The notes beneath the pieces were generated by a model. It worked only from the letters and a program-made list of their open reading frames with translations. It had not been told where the DNA came from and made no database searches. A stretch of 19,419 nucleotides of DNA. Source: a virus. Its lineage: Duplodnaviria > Heunggongvirae > Uroviricota > Caudoviricetes. The DNA lies in IMG/VR virus record IMGVR_UViG_2645727562_000003, positions 1 through 19,419 of that record; one strand, 5' to 3'. The position numbers and the translations under genes were made by a program. The first letter of the stretch is position 1; every line of letters starts with the position of its first letter. Positions 1 through 6,014 of the stretch are shown here, piece after piece.

Positions 1-969
1 CCCAACTTCTGAGGCGGCCTGAGATTCCATACGAATATGTGCAGAAATATGCTCTCCAATATCTATTGGTGCGAACAGGCCTGTTGTACGGTCAATAGTT
101 AAGGGGAAGATAGCTGCGCTATCTGAGGATATGGTGACTTCACCTTCACAGAAGAACGTGTCACCATTTATGGAATAAACTTTACAATCTGACCATTCCA
201 CTCGCTTCATGCGAATAGGGTTTCGGTTGAGGATGGCCTGCTTAGCCAGATAATCCACTTCTCCACCGGTTGCTTTAAAGTTCAGGTGCGTAAATTCAAA
301 CGTACCCTCCCCCTCGTACTGCAACGATTTAAACAGTGAGTACAGATCACTGTCGAATCTCAGGGTGACATTTTTATCAATGATTACTTTACTGTTCGCA
401 AGGAAAGAAGCGTTAGCAGCTGTAGACGGTACGGTGTACACCATCTGATTTTTTGAATGATTAGAGAAGTAAACATACCCGTAGGTCGCAACACTATCGC
501 GCCACGCCTGGACTACGTTAGAATTATCATAACTTGGAATTTTTGTGATCGACTGCAAAACAAGATCTTCCTGTGAGATAGCTCCGTTTACCAGATTAAC
601 ACCTCCTTGAGATGCAAGATCTTGCCTGAGTTGGTCAGGGTCATACTTCAGCACATTCGAAAAATAGAACTGCTGAGCACCGTACGCATCATAAACAGCC
701 ATAGAATGCCCTTGTACAGTAACGAACTTAGCAATCTGTCCGTTATATACAGGGTAGCCAGCAGCGTTAATGATGATTGGTTGCGAAACAGGAACGTGAG
801 AGCCATCTTCGTTCTCCACATAAACCTGAATCTGGTTTTCAGGATTTACCGGGTCAGTGTCAATTTTACCGATATAAATTTTACCATTGGCTACGGCTTT
901 AAAAGAACGAGCCATAGTGAAGAGTTGCGAAGGCATGCTTACCACAACATTTGCGGTGATATCTGTCAT
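1..969 (-). CDS. Tailspike protein, partial (N-terminal 323 codons; gene continues past the left edge of the window)
   Basis: Minus-strand ATG at 967-969 with GGAG 8 nt upstream. N-terminus [43 protein letters not shown] matches the P22 gp9 head-binding domain from memory. I checked every in-frame triplet from 1 to 969 and found no stop. After YDPDQ the sequence diverges from the P22/Sf6/HK620 tailspikes as I remember them. Not in the ORF track because it has no in-window stop. Confidence 0.85.
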
Positions 970-1027: not shown

Positions 1028-1051
1028 AAAAAAACCCAGCCGAAGCTGGGT
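1028..1051 (-). terminator. Rho-independent terminator downstream of the KilA-N antirepressor gene, upstream of the tailspike gene
   Basis: Plus strand aaaaaaa-cccagc-cgaa-gctggg; on the minus strand this is a GC-rich 6-7 bp stem with tetraloop followed by a 7-U tract. Confidence 0.6.
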
Positions 1052-1069
1052 CGTTGCGTTGGTTATCTG

Positions 1070-1960
1070 TCAGTAGTTATGTACTGAAGGAGGTAATTCT
1101 TTATTCTTAAGTCTCATCCATGCGGAAAGATTCGTTGGTCCGTCTGGCTCATTAATATCAACATCTCGTGTATGGTTGATTAAAACATCTCTCGCCATAT
1201 CGATAATACGGGAGAACTCATAACCGCAGTCATGACATCTGCCGGAATAGTTCGATTGAATTTGTTTTAGCGCCGGATACAGTTCGCGGAATAACGCCTG
1301 TGAGCGGTTGGCATAATCCCATAACCATACAAGGCTGTTTGCTTCTTTTGCAGAAAGCTCGTTGGTTTTCTTCTCTTGTTTGCCGATGAATTCACCTTCA
1401 AGCACTACCCTGTGGATGTACTCTACGGCCAGCGGGATTTGTTCAATTGAAAGTTCATCAATGCTGTCAATACCAAAACGCTGATGAACCATATTGTATG
1501 CATCGTCATAGCGAAGTCCTTTCTTTCCTACCAGCATGTTTACTGCATCTCGTAGCGGCGTGCGTTCAGCTACTGAAGTTTTACCGCCAATAGCCTTCCT
1601 CTCTTGTGTGGCAGTAACCATTGCGTCATATGCGCGGATAACCTTCAGCGCAAATGCTGCGCTAATCCACATGGCGTAGGAGTAAACAAGCTCCTTGCAC
1701 ACGTATGTTCCACCATATCTACCTTTCTTAGAAATGACGGGATTCTTATTCTGCATATCCGCAGAATTAAAAATTTCATTAATCAATTCAATAGTTTCAT
1801 TTCTACGCATGAAGAAAGCTGGCTGATGTTTTTCCTCCTTTCCAGACGCTACATGAAGGTCATTAAGCGAGTAACGACCCTCTGAATCCATATGAATCTT
1901 GACGTCAGAAATGATGATGCTATTAGTGCAATTTACAGTTGACTTTGCTAAGCTTGACAT
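1070..1960 (-). CDS. KilA-N domain antirepressor-like protein (occupies the position of P22 ant)
   Basis: Motif [13 protein letters not shown] and surrounding region fit the KilA-N domain. Start chosen at ATG 1958-1960 (MSSLAKSTV...) with GAGG about 10 nt upstream; the track start at 2026 is TTG with a poor SD. Same strand and operon as the arc-like gene. Confidence 0.6.
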
Positions 1961-2022
1961 ATCAATAATACCTCGTAAGTTTTGTTGATACCGAAGCCCT
2001 GACTGTTCCCGCAGTTGGGGCT

Positions 2023-2226
2023 TCAACTTTCTGCTCTATCAGTTATATCTTTCCCTTCGTATACTTCACCTATATTGCTAATGCTGGCAGAACATCCAAG
2101 ATGCTTGTATCTTATGATGTCCAACACGCAGTCACTACACAGCATCCGACCTGTTTCTTTAGAGTAAATGTATGTTTGATCAGCGTCTGATTCGCTAATG
2201 CCGCAGAAACAACATTCTTTACTCAT
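2023..2226 (-). CDS. Cys-rich small protein (67 aa), possible zinc-ribbon; unknown function
   Basis: ATG start overlaps the arc-like stop as ATGA (translational coupling). Cys pattern CCxC ... CxxC (C5, C6, C8, C30, C33). Confidence 0.45.
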
Positions 2227-2363
2227 ACCATCACCCCCTCTCTCTTCAAGCTGTCCAGCACCCGTTTAATTACTTCTGCGCTAAACGATCGACACTCTTC
2301 CTTTGCTTTCTCTTCAAGGATTTTTTCTAACTTCTCTGGCATACGCAGTGTTTTTACCTTCAT
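2223..2363 (-). CDS. arc: Arc-like ribbon-helix-helix repressor (46 aa)
   Basis: [46 protein letters not shown] resembles P22 Arc in length and in the SxEV/I..RV..S.K.EG region. ATG 2361-2363 preceded by GGAGG at 5-nt spacing. The track start at 2429 is GTG and less likely. Confidence 0.65.
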   Translation of the reverse strand: MKVKTLRMPEKLEKILEEKAKEECRSFSAEVIKRVLDSLKREGVMV

Positions 2364-2375
2364 TGCATCCTCCGC

Positions 2376-2412
2376 TGTATGTGGTACGCATACATAGTAT
2401 TTAGGTACGCAT
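2376..2412. promoter_or_regulatory. Candidate operator repeats in the divergent promoter region
   Basis: Direct repeat GGTACGCAT at 2383-2391 and 2404-2412, 21 bp centre to centre. Imperfect inverted repeat TGTATG (2376-2381) / CATACA (2389-2394). The repeats overlap the start site, -10 and spacer of the minus-strand promoter. Confidence 0.4.
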
Positions 2413-2422
2413 TGATAGTCAA
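2394..2422 (-). promoter_or_regulatory. Candidate sigma70 promoter for the arc-like / Cys-rich / KilA-N operon (Pant-like)
   Basis: Minus strand reads TTGACT (plus 2417-2422), 17-nt spacer, TACTAT (plus 2394-2399). Predicted transcription start about 24 nt upstream of the arc-like ATG, so the GGAGG SD is included. Confidence 0.5.
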
Positions 2423-2440
2423 TAGACACCTACATATCCT
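2412..2440 (+). promoter_or_regulatory. Candidate divergent sigma70 promoter for the Mnt-paralogue / mnt operon (Pmnt-like)
   Basis: TTGATA (2412-2417), 17-nt spacer, TATCCT (2435-2440). Its -35 abuts the -35 of the minus-strand promoter, sharing 1 bp. Confidence 0.4.
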
Positions 2441-2468
2441 GTGGTAAAAAATTATTCAGGGTGTGCCG

Positions 2469-2726
2469 ATGTCTGATCGTAAGTACAAAAACCCTCAAGT
2501 GAATCTGAGGCTTCCTGTAGAGATAAAGGAACGTCTTATTGAACTGGCTGAGGCTAATTCTCGTTCATTAAATGCTGAGATGGTCGCTGCACTTGAAGCA
2601 TGGACCGAAAAAAATAAACACATTCAAGCACTAGACCTTGCAACTATAGCATCACGATTGATAGATCTTGAACATGATGTTGAGAAGTTGAAATGCATGT
2701 ATGGCAACAATAAAGACGAAAGTTAG
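2469..2726 (+). CDS. Ribbon-helix-helix DNA-binding protein with C-terminal coiled-coil-like tail (Mnt paralogue, 85 aa)
   Basis: N-terminus NPQVNLRLPVEIKERLIELAEANSRSLNAEMVAALEAW parallels the RHH region of Mnt (NFRMPLEVREKLKLRAEANGRLMNSELLQIV). ATG at 2469; the track start at 2463 is GTG. Confidence 0.55.
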   Translation: MSDRKYKNPQVNLRLPVEIKERLIELAEANSRSLNAEMVAALEAWTEKNKHIQALDLATIASRLIDLEHDVEKLKCMYGNNKDES

Positions 2727-2749: not shown

Positions 2750-3001
2750 ATGGCTAGAGATGATCCGCACTTTAACTTCCGTATGCCTTTGGAAGTAAGA
2801 GAAAAATTGAAATTAAGAGCCGAGGCTAACGGAAGGTTAATGAACTCTGAGTTATTACAAATCGTTCAGGATGCGCTATCAAAACCATCACCGATTGCAG
2901 GTTACCGTGACGAAGCAGAACGCATGGCTGATCAGCAAGCAGAAATTGTTAAGAAGATGGTGTTTGAAACGCTGAAGGATTTGTACAAAAAACCCACCTG
3001 A
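2750..3001 (+). CDS. mnt: Mnt repressor (83 aa)
   Basis: MARDDPHFNFRMPLEVREKLKLRAEANGRLMNSELLQIVQDALSKPSP... is near-identical to P22 Mnt as I remember it. GGAG SD about 8 nt upstream of ATG 2750. Confidence 0.85.
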   Translation: MARDDPHFNFRMPLEVREKLKLRAEANGRLMNSELLQIVQDALSKPSPIAGYRDEAERMADQQAEIVKKMVFETLKDLYKKPT

Positions 3002-3066: not shown

Positions 3067-3100
3067 ATCGCCCAATAACGGGTGTATGTTGAGGTATATC

Positions 3101-3280
3101 ATGGCGAAAAAACCAGGTGAAAACACAGGAAAAAACGGCGGAATATACCAAGAAGTTGGCCCACGCGGCGGTAAGAAAGACAATTTTGCAACCGTCAAGG
3201 ACAACGAAAGGCTTCCACCAACAACAAAGCCAGGTCATGGCTGGGTATTGGATAAGCGAACTCCAGACAGCAAAAAGTAA
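3101..3280 (+). CDS. YjzC-like small protein (59 aa)
   Basis: MAKKPGENTGKNGGIYQEVGPRGGKKDNFATVKDNERLPPTTKPGHGWVLDKRTPDSKK; the pattern KPG..NGG.Y.EVG ... P.T ... W resembles the YjzC-like family from memory. ATG 3101 preceded by GAGG at 6-nt spacing; the track start at 3086 is TTG. Followed by its own terminator. Confidence 0.6.
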   Translation: MAKKPGENTGKNGGIYQEVGPRGGKKDNFATVKDNERLPPTTKPGHGWVLDKRTPDSKK

Positions 3281-3286
3281 TAATCA

Positions 3287-3308
3287 AGCCGGGTCACTCC
3301 GGCTTTTT
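3287..3308 (+). terminator. Rho-independent terminator after the YjzC-like gene
   Basis: agccgg(g)-tcac-ccggct followed by tttt at 3305-3308. The hairpin overlaps the stop codon of the convergent minus-strand gene. Confidence 0.55.
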
Positions 3309-3659
3309 GATATGTCGCTCGCAGAACTCAACAAGCCTGCTCATTAAGTAGCAGTAAGTCTCGTTGGCTCTTCCTGGTTCAACATCAACACCTACCCTTG
3401 AGCAGATATCGAATGCCATGTGAGCGCACTCATGGGCAATAGTAGATAGTTTGCCATTGAACACGCCTATCACATGCAAAACACCATTCTCGCTACTCAC
3501 TGTATGAGACGCTCCGTTGGCGTCCGAGTCATGCACGTCAACGCCAAGTTTTTGATGCAGGCGTTGCCATTCTGGAAAGTCTCTACAAAACACAATTATA
3601 CCGCTCTCAAAGAGCGGAACGAGCATCTTTGGTACGTTTCCAATGTTAACTTTTTTCAT
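3294..3659 (-). CDS. Small HExxH-motif protein (121 aa), putative minimal ImmA/IrrE-like zinc metallopeptidase
   Basis: Motif TIAHECAHM followed 13 residues later by E-PGR-ANETYCYLM, resembling the ImmA/IrrE HExxH ... ExxANxFxxxLL signature. ATG 3657-3659 with AGGA at 4-nt spacing; the track start at 3698 is TTG with no SD. Overlaps an antisense plus-strand reading frame (3474-3689), so the assignment is tentative. Confidence 0.45.
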   Translation of the reverse strand: MKKVNIGNVPKMLVPLFESGIIVFCRDFPEWQRLHQKLGVDVHDSDANGASHTVSSENGVLHVIGVFNGKLSTIAHECAHMAFDICSRVGVDVEPGRANETYCYLMSRLVEFCERHIKKPE

Positions 3660-3689
3660 GGTATCCTGAGCAAAACTAAGGAGGTTGGT

Positions 3690-4079
3690 GTGAAGCAATT
3701 TCTTACTGCTATGTTCTTATTCATATCTTTTGGGGCTACAGCAGAGTGCTGGGTCGTTGGAGATATGCGCGGAATAAGCTATTCAGAACGAAATAATTTC
3801 CATCCGGAAGAAGATGGTTTTAGTGGAACATTCATCATTAAGACAAACGGTGAAGATGCCAGCATCACATATTCTGGGACAGATGCGGGCGGCATGGCTT
3901 ACAAAGCATTGTCTAAAAACTCCATCATAGGAATCGGCGCGAATGGCGAAACTCAACGCGTTATCGACTCATGGGTAATACATCCTACTGGAACAGTTTT
4001 AATGTCAAAAACCATTTCCGGTTATGGAAATATGGATTCAACCAAAGCTTTTGTTGGAAAAGTAAAAAGAAAATGTTAG
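3690..4079 (+). CDS. Secreted/periplasmic protein (129 aa precursor, predicted signal peptidase I signal peptide), unknown function
   Basis: AAGGAGG (3678-3684) 5 nt upstream of GTG 3690. N-terminus MKQFLTAMFLFISFGATA followed by ECWVVG is a canonical signal peptide (basic n-region, hydrophobic core, A-x-A site). Mature protein is Gly/Ser/Thr-rich with Cys at both ends. The track's 201-aa version from ATG 3474 lacks an SD and runs antisense through the HExxH gene. Confidence 0.55.
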   Translation: MKQFLTAMFLFISFGATAECWVVGDMRGISYSERNNFHPEEDGFSGTFIIKTNGEDASITYSGTDAGGMAYKALSKNSIIGIGANGETQRVIDSWVIHPTGTVLMSKTISGYGNMDSTKAFVGKVKRKC

Positions 4080-4103
4080 CGATTGAATCCAATTTCCCAT
4101 ACG

Positions 4104-6014
4104 TTACTGCTGTGTTGCCTCAGTGGCAAGCAGCGGCCTGATGGCATTCGCAGCGTTATTCAGCGTTCTTTCATAGGCTGGCGTTCCTGCTTTGGTGTTT
4201 GCCAGACGTAAGAGAGCATTCCTTGCTGCTTTGGACTCATACAAGCGCATGATTGCACCGAAACCAGATTCAAGCGCCAGTGTTGCCCCAAGAGTCGCAG
4301 TTGCGCCAATCGTCCTTATCCTGTTGGCTTGCGATTGCCCTGTCTGAGTTACAACATTTGCGATGTCTGACCTTGCTGTTTGCTGTAGAACTTCATGAAG
4401 AGCATCAAGCTCTTTCATGTGTCTCCCACTGAATATCGTGTTATAGATCTGACCGTCAGATTGCGACTTCAACTTATTTAACTCGGTAAGAAATTTTGTT
4501 GGCGAGTCTCCTGCCTTTTCTGCAATCTTGCTAATATAAGCAGCACGCATAGCGTTCTTTCCATCTTCACTAAGAGCAGGCCATATCCTCTTAATATCTG
4601 ATGGTTTTCTGCTGAATACAACGCTGTTTATTAGCTCTGGAGTAAACTCTTTTTTAGCTTTGTTGAGATTGTTCGCAATCCTTTTATTGAGAACCTTATT
4701 GAATACGTTGGAGTAGTCAGAGTTTGCTTTGACGTATCTGGCAGCCTCTCCAGCCCCCAAATACCGTGCTGCGTTATTCCTCAAATCTGAACCCATTGCC
4801 CTCTCCACGGCATCAGTTGCGGCTTTCGCGCTATTAGGAAAAACCATGGCATCTCCCTGAATACTTTCCCTTAATGCTGACCGCAACTCTCTCAATAGTC
4901 CAAAATCTACATCTGGTTTAGCAAGTTCTTCTCGCAAATCGGATAGCCCGCGAATCAAATCCTTATTTGCCACTTTCCCAAGCCTGTTAGCCCTGGTAAG
5001 CACGTTGTCGATAACCTTAATGGATTTTGATGTGTCAACAGGTGTATCTCCCATTTTAGTTGTAATGTCTTCAATAACGCTTCCGGCTGAATCCTTCCTT
5101 GACTTCAGAGAACCATACAGATCGTCAACAACAACTGATGGGCTATATTCACCATATTTCTCAAGCTGTTTTTTAACTAGCTGACTTCTTTTTGCATACT
5201 GCTCAGCTCGCTTTGAGCCTGTTCCCAGCAAAGCCCCCTCAGCATCCTGAGTAAGACCACGAGTGAAAGCATTTTTCGGCGGGATTACATCAGATGTCAT
5301 TGGTGTCACGCCCATCGATTCTGATGTGGCAATTTTCTTCGCCACTTCTGGTGCAATATCACCTTTAAAGGCAGTTATTCCACGCTCAAGCCCTTTTGCA
5401 ACAGTATTAACAGCACCACCTGTTAGCATGCCAACACCTATATCTGTTGCCAGTTTTCCCGCATCATTTTTCTCACTGTTTGCGGCGAGCGATCCGACTG
5501 CGTTTTCTGCCAGAAGACGGGTTGCGCCTTGAGTAATTCGACCAGCAAGTGTTGGCGCCTGAGTTGAAGCGCCGCCAACGCCAACAGTAGCCAGGTAAGG
5601 CAATGCCTCCGCAAACACCCTACCTTCTGTCGTTTGTGGAGTCAGAGCACCTTGCTGAAGTCCAAACGCCTGCTCTAATCCCTGAGTTGTTACTCGTGGC
5701 GCTGGTTGATATGTTCCATCGCCAATACCGAGTTTACCGCCAGCCCATGCCGCCGCGCTTGTTACAGCATCGGCAACTGATGCTGGTATATTTGCCACAT
5801 TTACACCAGCCTGCACCAGTCCGCGACCAGTTTCTTTTACTGCTTCGCCGAGGTCAGACATAAATCCATCTTGCTGTTCTACAGGCTGCTTTTGGTTTTG
5901 AGTTGGTTGATTACTGGAGGACAGAATCTGAGCAATGCGACGCGCTCCTTCTGTATCGCCTGCCGCATCAGCGTTCCTTAATGCTGTCATCAACTGTTCA
6001 CGACTATAGGCCAT
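4104..6014 (-). CDS. Ejection (DNA-transfer) protein, P22 gp16 homologue
   Basis: 636 aa, Ala/Gly-rich, last of the three ejection genes in conserved order. GGAGGG SD; start overlaps the gp20 stop as TAATG. Confidence 0.8.
   Translation of the reverse strand: MAYSREQLMTALRNADAAGDTEGARRIAQILSSSNQPTQNQKQPVEQQDGFMSDLGEAVKETGRGLVQAGVNVANIPASVADAVTSAAAWAGGKLGIGDGTYQPAPRVTTQGLEQAFGLQQGALTPQTTEGRVFAEALPYLATVGVGGASTQAPTLAGRITQGATRLLAENAVGSLAANSEKNDAGKLATDIGVGMLTGGAVNTVAKGLERGITAFKGDIAPEVAKKIATSESMGVTPMTSDVIPPKNAFTRGLTQDAEGALLGTGSKRAEQYAKRSQLVKKQLEKYGEYSPSVVVDDLYGSLKSRKDSAGSVIEDITTKMGDTPVDTSKSIKVIDNVLTRANRLGKVANKDLIRGLSDLREELAKPDVDFGLLRELRSALRESIQGDAMVFPNSAKAATDAVERAMGSDLRNNAARYLGAGEAARYVKANSDYSNVFNKVLNKRIANNLNKAKKEFTPELINSVVFSRKPSDIKRIWPALSEDGKNAMRAAYISKIAEKAGDSPTKFLTELNKLKSQSDGQIYNTIFSGRHMKELDALHEVLQQTARSDIANVVTQTGQSQANRIRTIGATATLGATLALESGFGAIMRLYESKAARNALLRLANTKAGTPAYERTLNNAANAIRPLLATEATQQ

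Follow-up and report, generated by a model that had tools for sequence, protein, structure and literature searches.

How should one annotate, and read the function of, a gene that occupies the place of the antirepressor gene ant of phage P22 and whose product begins with a KilA-N domain? The gene lies in a 19,419-nt stretch of viral DNA (Caudoviricetes; IMG/VR record IMGVR_UViG_2645727562_000003), which is referred to throughout as the window.

Position of the gene and its neighbors

The coding sequence (CDS) and the features that flank it directly are as follows:

1070..1960, minus strand: ant CDS, 296 aa plus stop codon, start ATG 1960 (ORF listing)
1033..1052, minus strand: intrinsic terminator between ant and the tailspike gene, an 8-bp GC-rich stem and then TTTTTAT
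1..969, minus strand: 5' part of the tailspike gene, the downstream neighbor of ant, running off the window (Pfam Head_binding, E=1.5e-67, residues 1-113)
2023..2226, minus strand: Cys-rich (CxxC...CxxC) small ORF of 67 aa between arc and ant, its stop codon overlapping the sar terminator (ORF listing)
2223..2363, minus strand: arc-like gene opening the ant operon, for a ribbon-helix-helix repressor of 46 aa (Pfam Arc, E=7.5e-8)

The ORF listing gives an intact frame with its stop codon at 1070-1072 and the ATG at 1960-1958, open upstream as far as TTG 2026. A preliminary description of this DNA had placed the gene at the position of P22 ant, and the surroundings bear this out, with an arc-like gene and sar upstream and the terminator and tailspike gene downstream. 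P22, epsilon34, and Emek show the same succession of mnt, arc, sar, ant, terminator, and tailspike, and in each of them the terminator is annotated at the same site. The window as a whole can be aligned with the P22-like phage CUS-3 (Lederbergvirus) at 96.7% identity over 63% of its length. The ant region of P22 was named the hypervariable 'ant moron' by Villafane et al. (PMC2629481).

A small ORF is interposed between the arc-like gene and ant at this locus and is co-transcribed with ant. It matches phrog_7150 (E=3e-50) and has no Pfam or NCBIfam match. Other loci have unrelated small ORFs in this slot between arc and ant, and none is present there in P22, Kapi1, or the P0040 loci (P0040 being a protein of Salmonella prophages encoded in the same slot as ant). 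A tie between the Cys-rich ORF and the KilA-N allele was considered and rejected, since at least three unrelated ORFs occupy the slot and it is empty in the P0040 loci, which are themselves of the KilA-N type.

Domain architecture of the product

The product can be divided into three modules:

1583..1960, minus strand: module 1, KilA-N domain and linker, residues 1-126, the swapped part (Pfam PF04383)
1376..1582, minus strand: module 2, conserved three-helix middle module, residues 127-195 (alignment A2 and AlphaFold2 [AF2] model)
1073..1375, minus strand: module 3, P22_AR_C domain and tail, residues 196-296 (Pfam PF10548)

The KilA-N domain that had been recognized from the letters alone was confirmed by profile search: PF04383 matches residues 19-114 (E=1.1e-19; 70.7 bits against a cut-off of 23.8) and covers positions 7-104 of the 107 in the profile. 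In a tblastn comparison, the N-terminus is 38.7% identical to that of the KilA proteins of P1 and P7 over residues 1-111. Module 1 has no similarity to the N-termini of the Ant proteins of P22, epsilon34, or CUS-3; by Pfam, all three consist of P22_AR_N and P22_AR_C, and the window protein has no match to P22_AR_N (PF10547).

The C-terminal 170 or so residues, on the other hand, had been described as unrecognized, which is incorrect. P22_AR_C (PF10548) matches residues 196-268 over its full profile, positions 1-73 (E=2.6e-28; 98.3 bits against a cut-off of 22.4), and in BLASTP residues 127-296 form a gapless 170-aa alignment, 84% identical, with residues 131-300 of P22 Ant (E=3e-108). The identity of the same residues to epsilon34 Ant is 86%. 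Thus, 57% of P22 Ant is kept in the window protein, at 84% identity. The earlier suggestion of a module swap, therefore, holds for the KilA-N head, which was exchanged over residues 1-126 only, and fails for the gene as a whole, as ant was not replaced and residues 127-296 are those of P22 Ant. Judged by its sequence, the gene is an N-terminal domain swap within ant, a recombinant allele of the immI region of a P22-like phage or prophage (Lederbergvirus). It also matches two PHROG anti-repressor families, phrog_245 (E=1.8e-56) and phrog_377 (E=2.3e-33), and no NCBIfam family.

The middle module, residues 127-195, is the best-conserved block in an alignment of 37 homologues (alignment A2), in which 19 of the 23 invariant columns fall within residues 127-190; its conserved pattern ends in Y..AY...H..F...SI.EL...Q...A.EY.H. 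No Pfam model reaches its threshold here, and ORF6C (PF10552) is unmatched in the window protein at E<=0.1. Sub-threshold ORF6C matches were found in 37 of the 121 scanned proteins that carry a middle module (best E=0.0015) and in CUS-3 Ant (E=0.006), and the module may be ORF6C-like.

The AF2 model (mean pLDDT 72) has folded regions at residues 13-117, 127-189, and 201-293, joined by low-confidence linkers at 118-126 and 190-200. The middle module consists of helices at 130-147, 151-162, and 174-187, and module 3 of a long helical hairpin (204-263) followed by a helix at 278-286. A sequence search of the PDB with the full protein returned nothing meaningful (best E=0.5), and a Foldseek search of the PDB with the AF2 model gave no match at E<0.3, a search that the low pTM (0.36) of this multi-domain model may have hampered.

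Start codon and the sar antisense RNA

Two features on the opposite strand bear on the 5' end of ant:

1962..2028, plus strand: sar antisense RNA (Rfam RF00262), complementary to the ant ribosome-binding region, with TTG 2026 in its terminator hairpin
1926..1954, plus strand: candidate Psar promoter inside ant codons 3-12, GTGCAA-17 nt-TAAGCT, by alignment (A1) with P22 Psar, GTGTTA-17-TATACT

The start had been left open between ATG 1960 and TTG 2026, and the raw sequence does indeed offer both. The choice falls on ATG 1960 by reason of sar, the Shine-Dalgarno spacing, and gene calls. The sar RNA matches the RF00262 model over its full length (E=1.4e-13; score 69.7 bits, gathering score 43) and adjoins ATG 1960; the annotated sar of P22 likewise starts at the base adjoining the ATG of ant and is complementary to the ribosome-binding region of that gene, so that the geometry is the same. 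A GAGG lies 10 nt upstream of ATG 1960, at a spacing equal to that of the P22 GGAG, while TTG 2026 is inside the sar terminator stem. ATG 1960 is also the start used in the Emek annotation and in gene calls on at least 22 contigs, and its first codons follow the pattern M-x-S/T-I/L-A common to all ant alleles. The frame upstream is open only because the loop of the sar terminator reads GGGAAC here versus GGTAAC in P22, where the TAA is in frame. The predicted start of ant is, then, ATG 1960, fixed by sar.

The same reasoning can be extended to other records. The Kapi1 CDS is annotated from the equivalent TTG inside sar, and several Enterobacter entries have unrelated N-terminal extensions. Database ant entries begun at the upstream TTG or at other in-frame codons (e.g., Kapi1) are probably over-extended, with sar read as coding sequence.

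For the window sar, folding gives the two-hairpin structure of P22 sar, with a free energy of -27.9 kcal/mol (z=-6.8). RNAalifold run on eight sar sequences returned hairpin 2 only, hairpin 1 having been set out of register by MAFFT, and individual folds were used. Hairpin 2, the terminator, is nearly invariant among alleles. The stem of hairpin 1 occurs in three allele groups (AUCAAUAA/UUGUUGAU, GUUGGU/ACUGAC, and GUCUU/GAGAC), with full complementarity in each. Five further loci, whose Ant heads are KilA-N or Bro-N, also have a sar abutting the ant ATG (L009, L013, L015 with two sar copies, and L017). This retention of sar in Bro-N and KilA-N alleles, with compensatory stems, was counted in favor of reading the gene as ant.

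The first ant codons of P22 overlap the -10 element of the annotated Psar, TATACT; the hexamer aligned with it here, TAAGCT, is a weaker match. The candidate Psar as a whole matches weakly (6/12), is absent from the promoter-scan output, and has its position inferred from the alignment only.

The mnt and arc control region

Upstream of the arc-like gene, the following were identified:

2394..2422, minus strand: candidate Pant promoter, TTGACT-17-TACTAT (promoter scan), overlapping plus-strand candidates for the divergent promoter of the mnt-like gene
2463..2726, plus strand: mnt-like gene 1, for a ribbon-helix-helix protein of 87 aa, oriented divergently to the ant operon (Pfam Arc, E=3.4e-10; 42% identity to the N-terminus of P22 Mnt)
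2750..3001, plus strand: P22-type mnt gene, 83 aa (Pfam Arc and Repressor_Mnt; 84% identity to P22 Mnt)

The divergent promoter region between the arc-like and mnt-like genes is about 100 bp long. Two exact GGTACGCAT repeats, at 2383 and 2404, adjoin the candidate Pant and are candidate operators. The arc-like product is 36% identical to P22 Arc, and a 46-aa product is also called in three other loci (L007, L009, and L011). The window has no copy of the P22 mnt operator; regulation may, therefore, differ from that of P22.

Recombination joints and domain shuffling

DNA identity profiles allow the exchanged segment to be delimited. Over module 1, identity to P22 and Kapi1 is at background level. 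Reading downward in coordinates, that is, toward the end of the gene, identity to Kapi1, which has a Bro-N head, is about 100% from ~1565; near-identity to P22 and epsilon34 begins at ~1440, with 93-100% in most 30-nt windows, and to CUS-3 at ~1405. Module 3 DNA is near-identical in P22, epsilon34, CUS-3, and Kapi1. On the other side of module 1, the sar terminator DNA (2000-2030) is 93-100% identical in the same four phages. The recombination joints thus delimited coincide with module borders or low-confidence linkers.

The middle module was also used on its own as a query. A word-index homologue search returned 13 short fragments only, and an exhaustive HMMER search was used in its place; this yielded 358 representative clusters, in which the module nearly always occupies residues ~110-200 of proteins of 260-310 aa. 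The Pfam scan set comprised the window protein and 120 of the 358 representatives, 121 in total, and every one of them bears one of six N-terminal heads:

Bro-N head: 35 of the 121 scanned proteins
KilA-N head: 31 of 121, window protein counted
P22_AR_N head: 25 of 121
Phage_pRha head: 15 of 121
ORF6N head: 10 of 121
AntA head: 5 of 121
P22_AR_C as C-terminal domain: 19 of 121, window protein included

The Bro network is described in PMC10111431 (citing Iyer, Koonin and Aravind 2002) as one of domain-swapping phage regulators, and the published lists quoted there include KilA-N, P22_AR_N, and P22_AR_C. A DNA-binding role is generally ascribed to KilA-N, Bro-N, Rha, and ORF6N, and some network members are DNA-binding repressors (PMC10111431). 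As judged from the domain matches, the heads and tails found with the middle module are the pattern of this network.

Shuffling is not limited to the head. In the P0040 protein, 99% identity over the KilA-N and middle modules is followed by an unrelated C-terminus of about 100 aa. Because this protein sits in the same slot, P22_AR_C would be dispensable for whatever the slot selects. The Ant protein of the Stx phage phi24B has no middle module, and no single module is universal across these proteins. One could also suppose that the middle module is the functional core of a large Ant-like family and that heads and tails are cassettes setting the repressor or DNA target, an idea that we consider rather improbable. 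If this is true, the KilA-N head would give a P22-type antirepressor another partner, and phages would have in the exchange of heads a general means of re-aiming cross-induction between prophages.

Comparison with named systems

The closest named relative is the ant product of Salmonella phage vB_SemP_Emek (YP_006560573.1, NC_018275), the same three-module protein of 296 aa with 97.6% amino acid identity. Its gene occupies the same slot, begins at the ATG, and is likewise separated from arc by a small ORF, with DNA identity of ~91% across the locus. The Emek protein differs by a 6-residue patch in P22_AR_C within residues 243-255, where the Emek sequence is YDYGHEFSYVIGM, and its small ORF upstream of ant is unrelated to that of the window.

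With P22, the window shares residues 127-296 of Ant (84%), the slot, the terminator, a sar at the ATG, the Shine-Dalgarno spacing, and the first codons. It differs in having KilA-N in place of the P22_AR_N head over the N-terminal 126 aa, an arc allele only 36% identical, an extra small ORF, an extra mnt-like gene, and no P22 mnt operator.

Kapi1 and many Salmonella and Escherichia coli prophages (P0050, 'phage repressor protein/antirepressor Ant') possess the same middle and C-terminal modules, slot, and sar, whereas Kapi1 Ant has a Bro-N head (PF02498) and no small ORF lies between its arc and ant. The phi24B Ant (AntA and P22_AR_C, 225 aa) has P22_AR_C in common with the window protein (82% over the last 104 aa) but another N-domain, and its gene belongs to the nin region of a lambdoid Stx phage and lacks arc, mnt, and sar control. 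P1 KilA, the founding KilA-N protein, has a homologous N-domain joined to another C-terminal part and lies outside any immI-type circuit. The Bro network, finally, provides the general pattern, as its shuffling of KilA-N, Bro-N, P22_AR_N, Rha, ORF6N, and AntA heads matches what is seen in the window protein.

Proposed function

The Ant protein of P22 binds the C2 repressor and inactivates it, acts likewise on those of L, lambda, and 21 (PMC3121763), and is held silent by Mnt, Arc, and sar (PMC3121763, PMC2629481). When ant is deleted from phi24B, the late promoter is on induction ~27-31% as active as in the wild type, and most of the activity returns on complementation (PMC3064807). The only module common to phi24B Ant, P22 Ant, and the window protein is P22_AR_C; the module present here at 82-84% identity is thus one shared by two experimentally supported antirepressors. 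By analogy with them, we consider it likely that the window ORF is a functional ant allele whose product acts as a P22-type antirepressor, and P22_AR_C, possibly together with the middle module, would carry the anti-repressor activity. The KilA-N head may serve as a DNA-binding module or as one that selects the target or partner.

On the P22 model, the Pant-like promoter would transcribe an operon of the arc-like gene, the small ORF, and ant, with ant last. In a lysogen, Mnt- and Arc-type ribbon-helix-helix repressors would keep ant silent, and sar would pair with the ant ribosome-binding region and block translation. Ant, once made, would bind CI/C2-type immunity repressors non-covalently and inactivate them, as P22 Ant does, and resident lambdoid prophages would be derepressed or their immunity overridden. 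The immC region is not part of the window.

A different assignment of roles must be weighed, in which the KilA-N head is dominant, the protein regulates through DNA binding or kills the host as P1 KilA does, and the modules derived from Ant serve for oligomerization or as a scaffold and bind no repressor. The head is a true KilA-N domain with 38.7% identity to the N-terminus of P1 KilA, and its class, with Bro-N, Rha, and ORF6N, is seen as DNA-binding in a network that includes DNA-binding repressors (PMC10111431). The middle module, moreover, occurs with six types of N-domain and mostly with C-termini other than P22_AR_C, and KilA-N plus the middle module is found with an unrelated C-terminus in the very same slot (P0040). 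Against these points, the full P22-type control circuit of Mnt, Arc, and sar, which serves to silence Ant, is retained around the gene, and the protein keeps, at 82-84% identity, the one module common to P22 Ant and phi24B Ant. We regard a protein dominated by its KilA-N head as unlikely, and P22-type antirepressor activity as the preferred reading.

The observations entered against an antirepressor were the weak -10 element of Psar (TAAGCT), the missing P22 mnt operator, a '(Defective?)' flag in the Emek record, and the P0040 C-terminus.

Our literature search found no mapping of the Ant module that contacts the repressor. The head- and tail-swapped alleles that occupy one genomic slot constitute a natural series with which the repressor-binding module could be mapped.

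Selection and distribution of the allele

It should also be asked whether the gene is intact in function, or a defective or decaying ant left by a recombination accident. In the Emek record, the CDS is labeled 'similar to C-terminus of Ant (Defective?)', and degraded ant genes are found in HK620 and Scho1 (PMC2629481). The present frame, in contrast, is intact over 296 aa, and dN/dS relative to Emek ant is 0.09 overall (0.065, 0, and 0.107 for modules 1, 2, and 3, respectively), the middle module being without a non-synonymous change. This value indicates purifying selection, argues that the gene is functional, and contradicts the Emek note. Homologues from Enterobacter, Klebsiella, and Salmonella keep the architecture at identities as low as 55%; the identical protein is spread among prophages that differ in their tailspikes and moron genes; and all three modules fold in the AF2 model. 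A decaying gene is, on this evidence, highly improbable.

The remaining alternative, wholesale replacement of ant by an unrelated KilA-N gene with a novel C-terminal half, has the KilA-N match in its favor and nothing further, and is refuted by the 84% and 86% identity of residues 127-296 to the Ant proteins of P22 and epsilon34, the P22_AR_C match, the DNA downstream of ~1440 (93-100% identical to P22 and epsilon34 in most 30-nt windows), and the first codons (M-x-S-[IL]-A) and sar common to all other ant alleles.

The allele is already known. It has RefSeq and GenBank entries, it is the annotated ant of phage Emek and occurs in many E. coli and Salmonella prophages, and KilA-N with P22_AR_C is a recognized combination. 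Hypervariability of the ant moron has also been described before (PMC2629481), and the finding as it stands matters little; what is useful is the set of three corrections, namely that the C-terminal half is that of P22 Ant, that the gene starts at ATG 1960, and that database entries with an ant start at the upstream TTG or another in-frame codon are probably over-extended.

The exact 296-aa protein is present on at least 22 public contigs, always in the order arc, small ORF, ant, tailspike and in P22-like prophages. Its 90%-identity cluster has 429 member sequences under the PGAP name 'P22AR C-terminal domain-containing protein', and P0001 is 99% identical. Some part of the region 1000-2450 is matched in 1,059 of 5,426 complete E. 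coli genomes, and the KilA-N-coding DNA in 34 of the 5,426 (19 with full coverage); the KilA-N ant allele is a minority allele.

Exchange and variation in the C-terminal part of Ant

Some proteins encoded in the ant slot retain the window-type KilA-N head and middle module, which are 99% identical and make up 67% of the protein, and end in unrelated tails of about 100 aa that do not contain P22_AR_C. They comprise P0040, a Salmonella prophage protein found at three of the comparison loci (L019-L021), and, with it, P0051, P0052, P0054, and P0074 in A2, our alignment of 37 Ant homologues. Since the head and middle are kept with unrelated ends, Ant exchanges its tail as well as its head.

P22_AR_C itself carries a local divergent patch at ant residues 243-255 (window 1190-1250). 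One 13-residue version is common to the window and the homologues P0001, P0005, and P0050; the patch is YDYGHEFSYVIGM in P22-type proteins, in Salmonella phage vB_SemP_Emek, and in most others. DNA identity falls to 67-83% here within a stretch that is otherwise 93-100% identical, which points to a short tract of gene conversion or to a surface that is diversifying.

The sar RNA and the ant start codon

Between ant and the small ORF is a full-length antisense RNA:

1962-2028, plus strand: sar antisense RNA (Rfam RF00262, 69.7 bits)

The stop codon of that ORF overlaps the terminator hairpin of sar, which also includes the TTG that the preliminary description had weighed as an alternative ant start. 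Several database entries place the ant start at this TTG within sar or at another in-frame codon upstream; these include Kapi1 (L005, ant annotated at 3495-4439) and A2 rows P0023, P0028, P0037, and P0059, among others. The resulting N-terminal extensions are not conserved, and the upstream starts are, therefore, probably mis-annotated.

Locus L015, a Salmonella siphovirus-type prophage with a tape-measure gene close by, encodes a 55% identical KilA-N plus P22_AR_C Ant that is accompanied by sar. About 3 kb from this sar, an additional copy adjoins another Arc-family gene; the two copies are at 2432-2500 (minus strand) and 5419-5487 (plus strand).

Small genes and regulators upstream of ant

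Inside the ant operon, the interval between arc and sar holds one ORF:

2023-2226, minus strand: 67-aa Cys-rich (CxxC...CxxC) ORF (phrog_7150)

PGAP names a relative "ClpX C4-type zinc finger protein." The same slot contains an unrelated 73-aa ORF in Emek and L007, an unrelated 89-aa ORF in L009 (an E. coli prophage), and a distant (27%) Cys-rich relative in L014, and it is empty in P22, Kapi1, and the P0040 loci. The interval is a mini-moron site.

Further upstream lie a second mnt gene and three small moron genes of unknown function (3086-4079):

2750-3001, plus strand: second mnt gene, 84% identical to P22 Mnt
within 3086-4079: 64-aa moron gene (phrog_3202; weak YjzC-like match)
within 3086-4079, minus strand: 134-aa moron gene (phrog_1365)
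3474-4079, plus strand: 201-aa moron ORF (phrog_2651)

The N-terminal DNA-reading strand of P22 Mnt is identical in the second mnt product. Yet the P22 mnt operator core, GGTCCACCGTGGACC, was not found anywhere in the window with up to three mismatches allowed. The divergent promoter region (2364-2462) contains GGTACGCAT twice, as exact repeats 21 bp apart.

The 201-aa ORF overlaps the minus-strand 134-aa gene. Because its PHROG match is confined to the last 116 residues, translation of the ORF probably begins near 3729.

Downstream of ant

Kapi1 (L005 2884-3384) and the E. coli prophage (L009 11002-11511) carry an HNH endonuclease gene between ant and the tailspike gene, whereas the window does not.

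1-969, minus strand: tailspike gene with a conserved head-binding domain

DNA similarity of this gene to most phages ends near position 632, and the only match to the receptor-binding part is phrog_17606, a family of unknown function; its host-receptor specificity is, therefore, predicted to be of an uncommon type.
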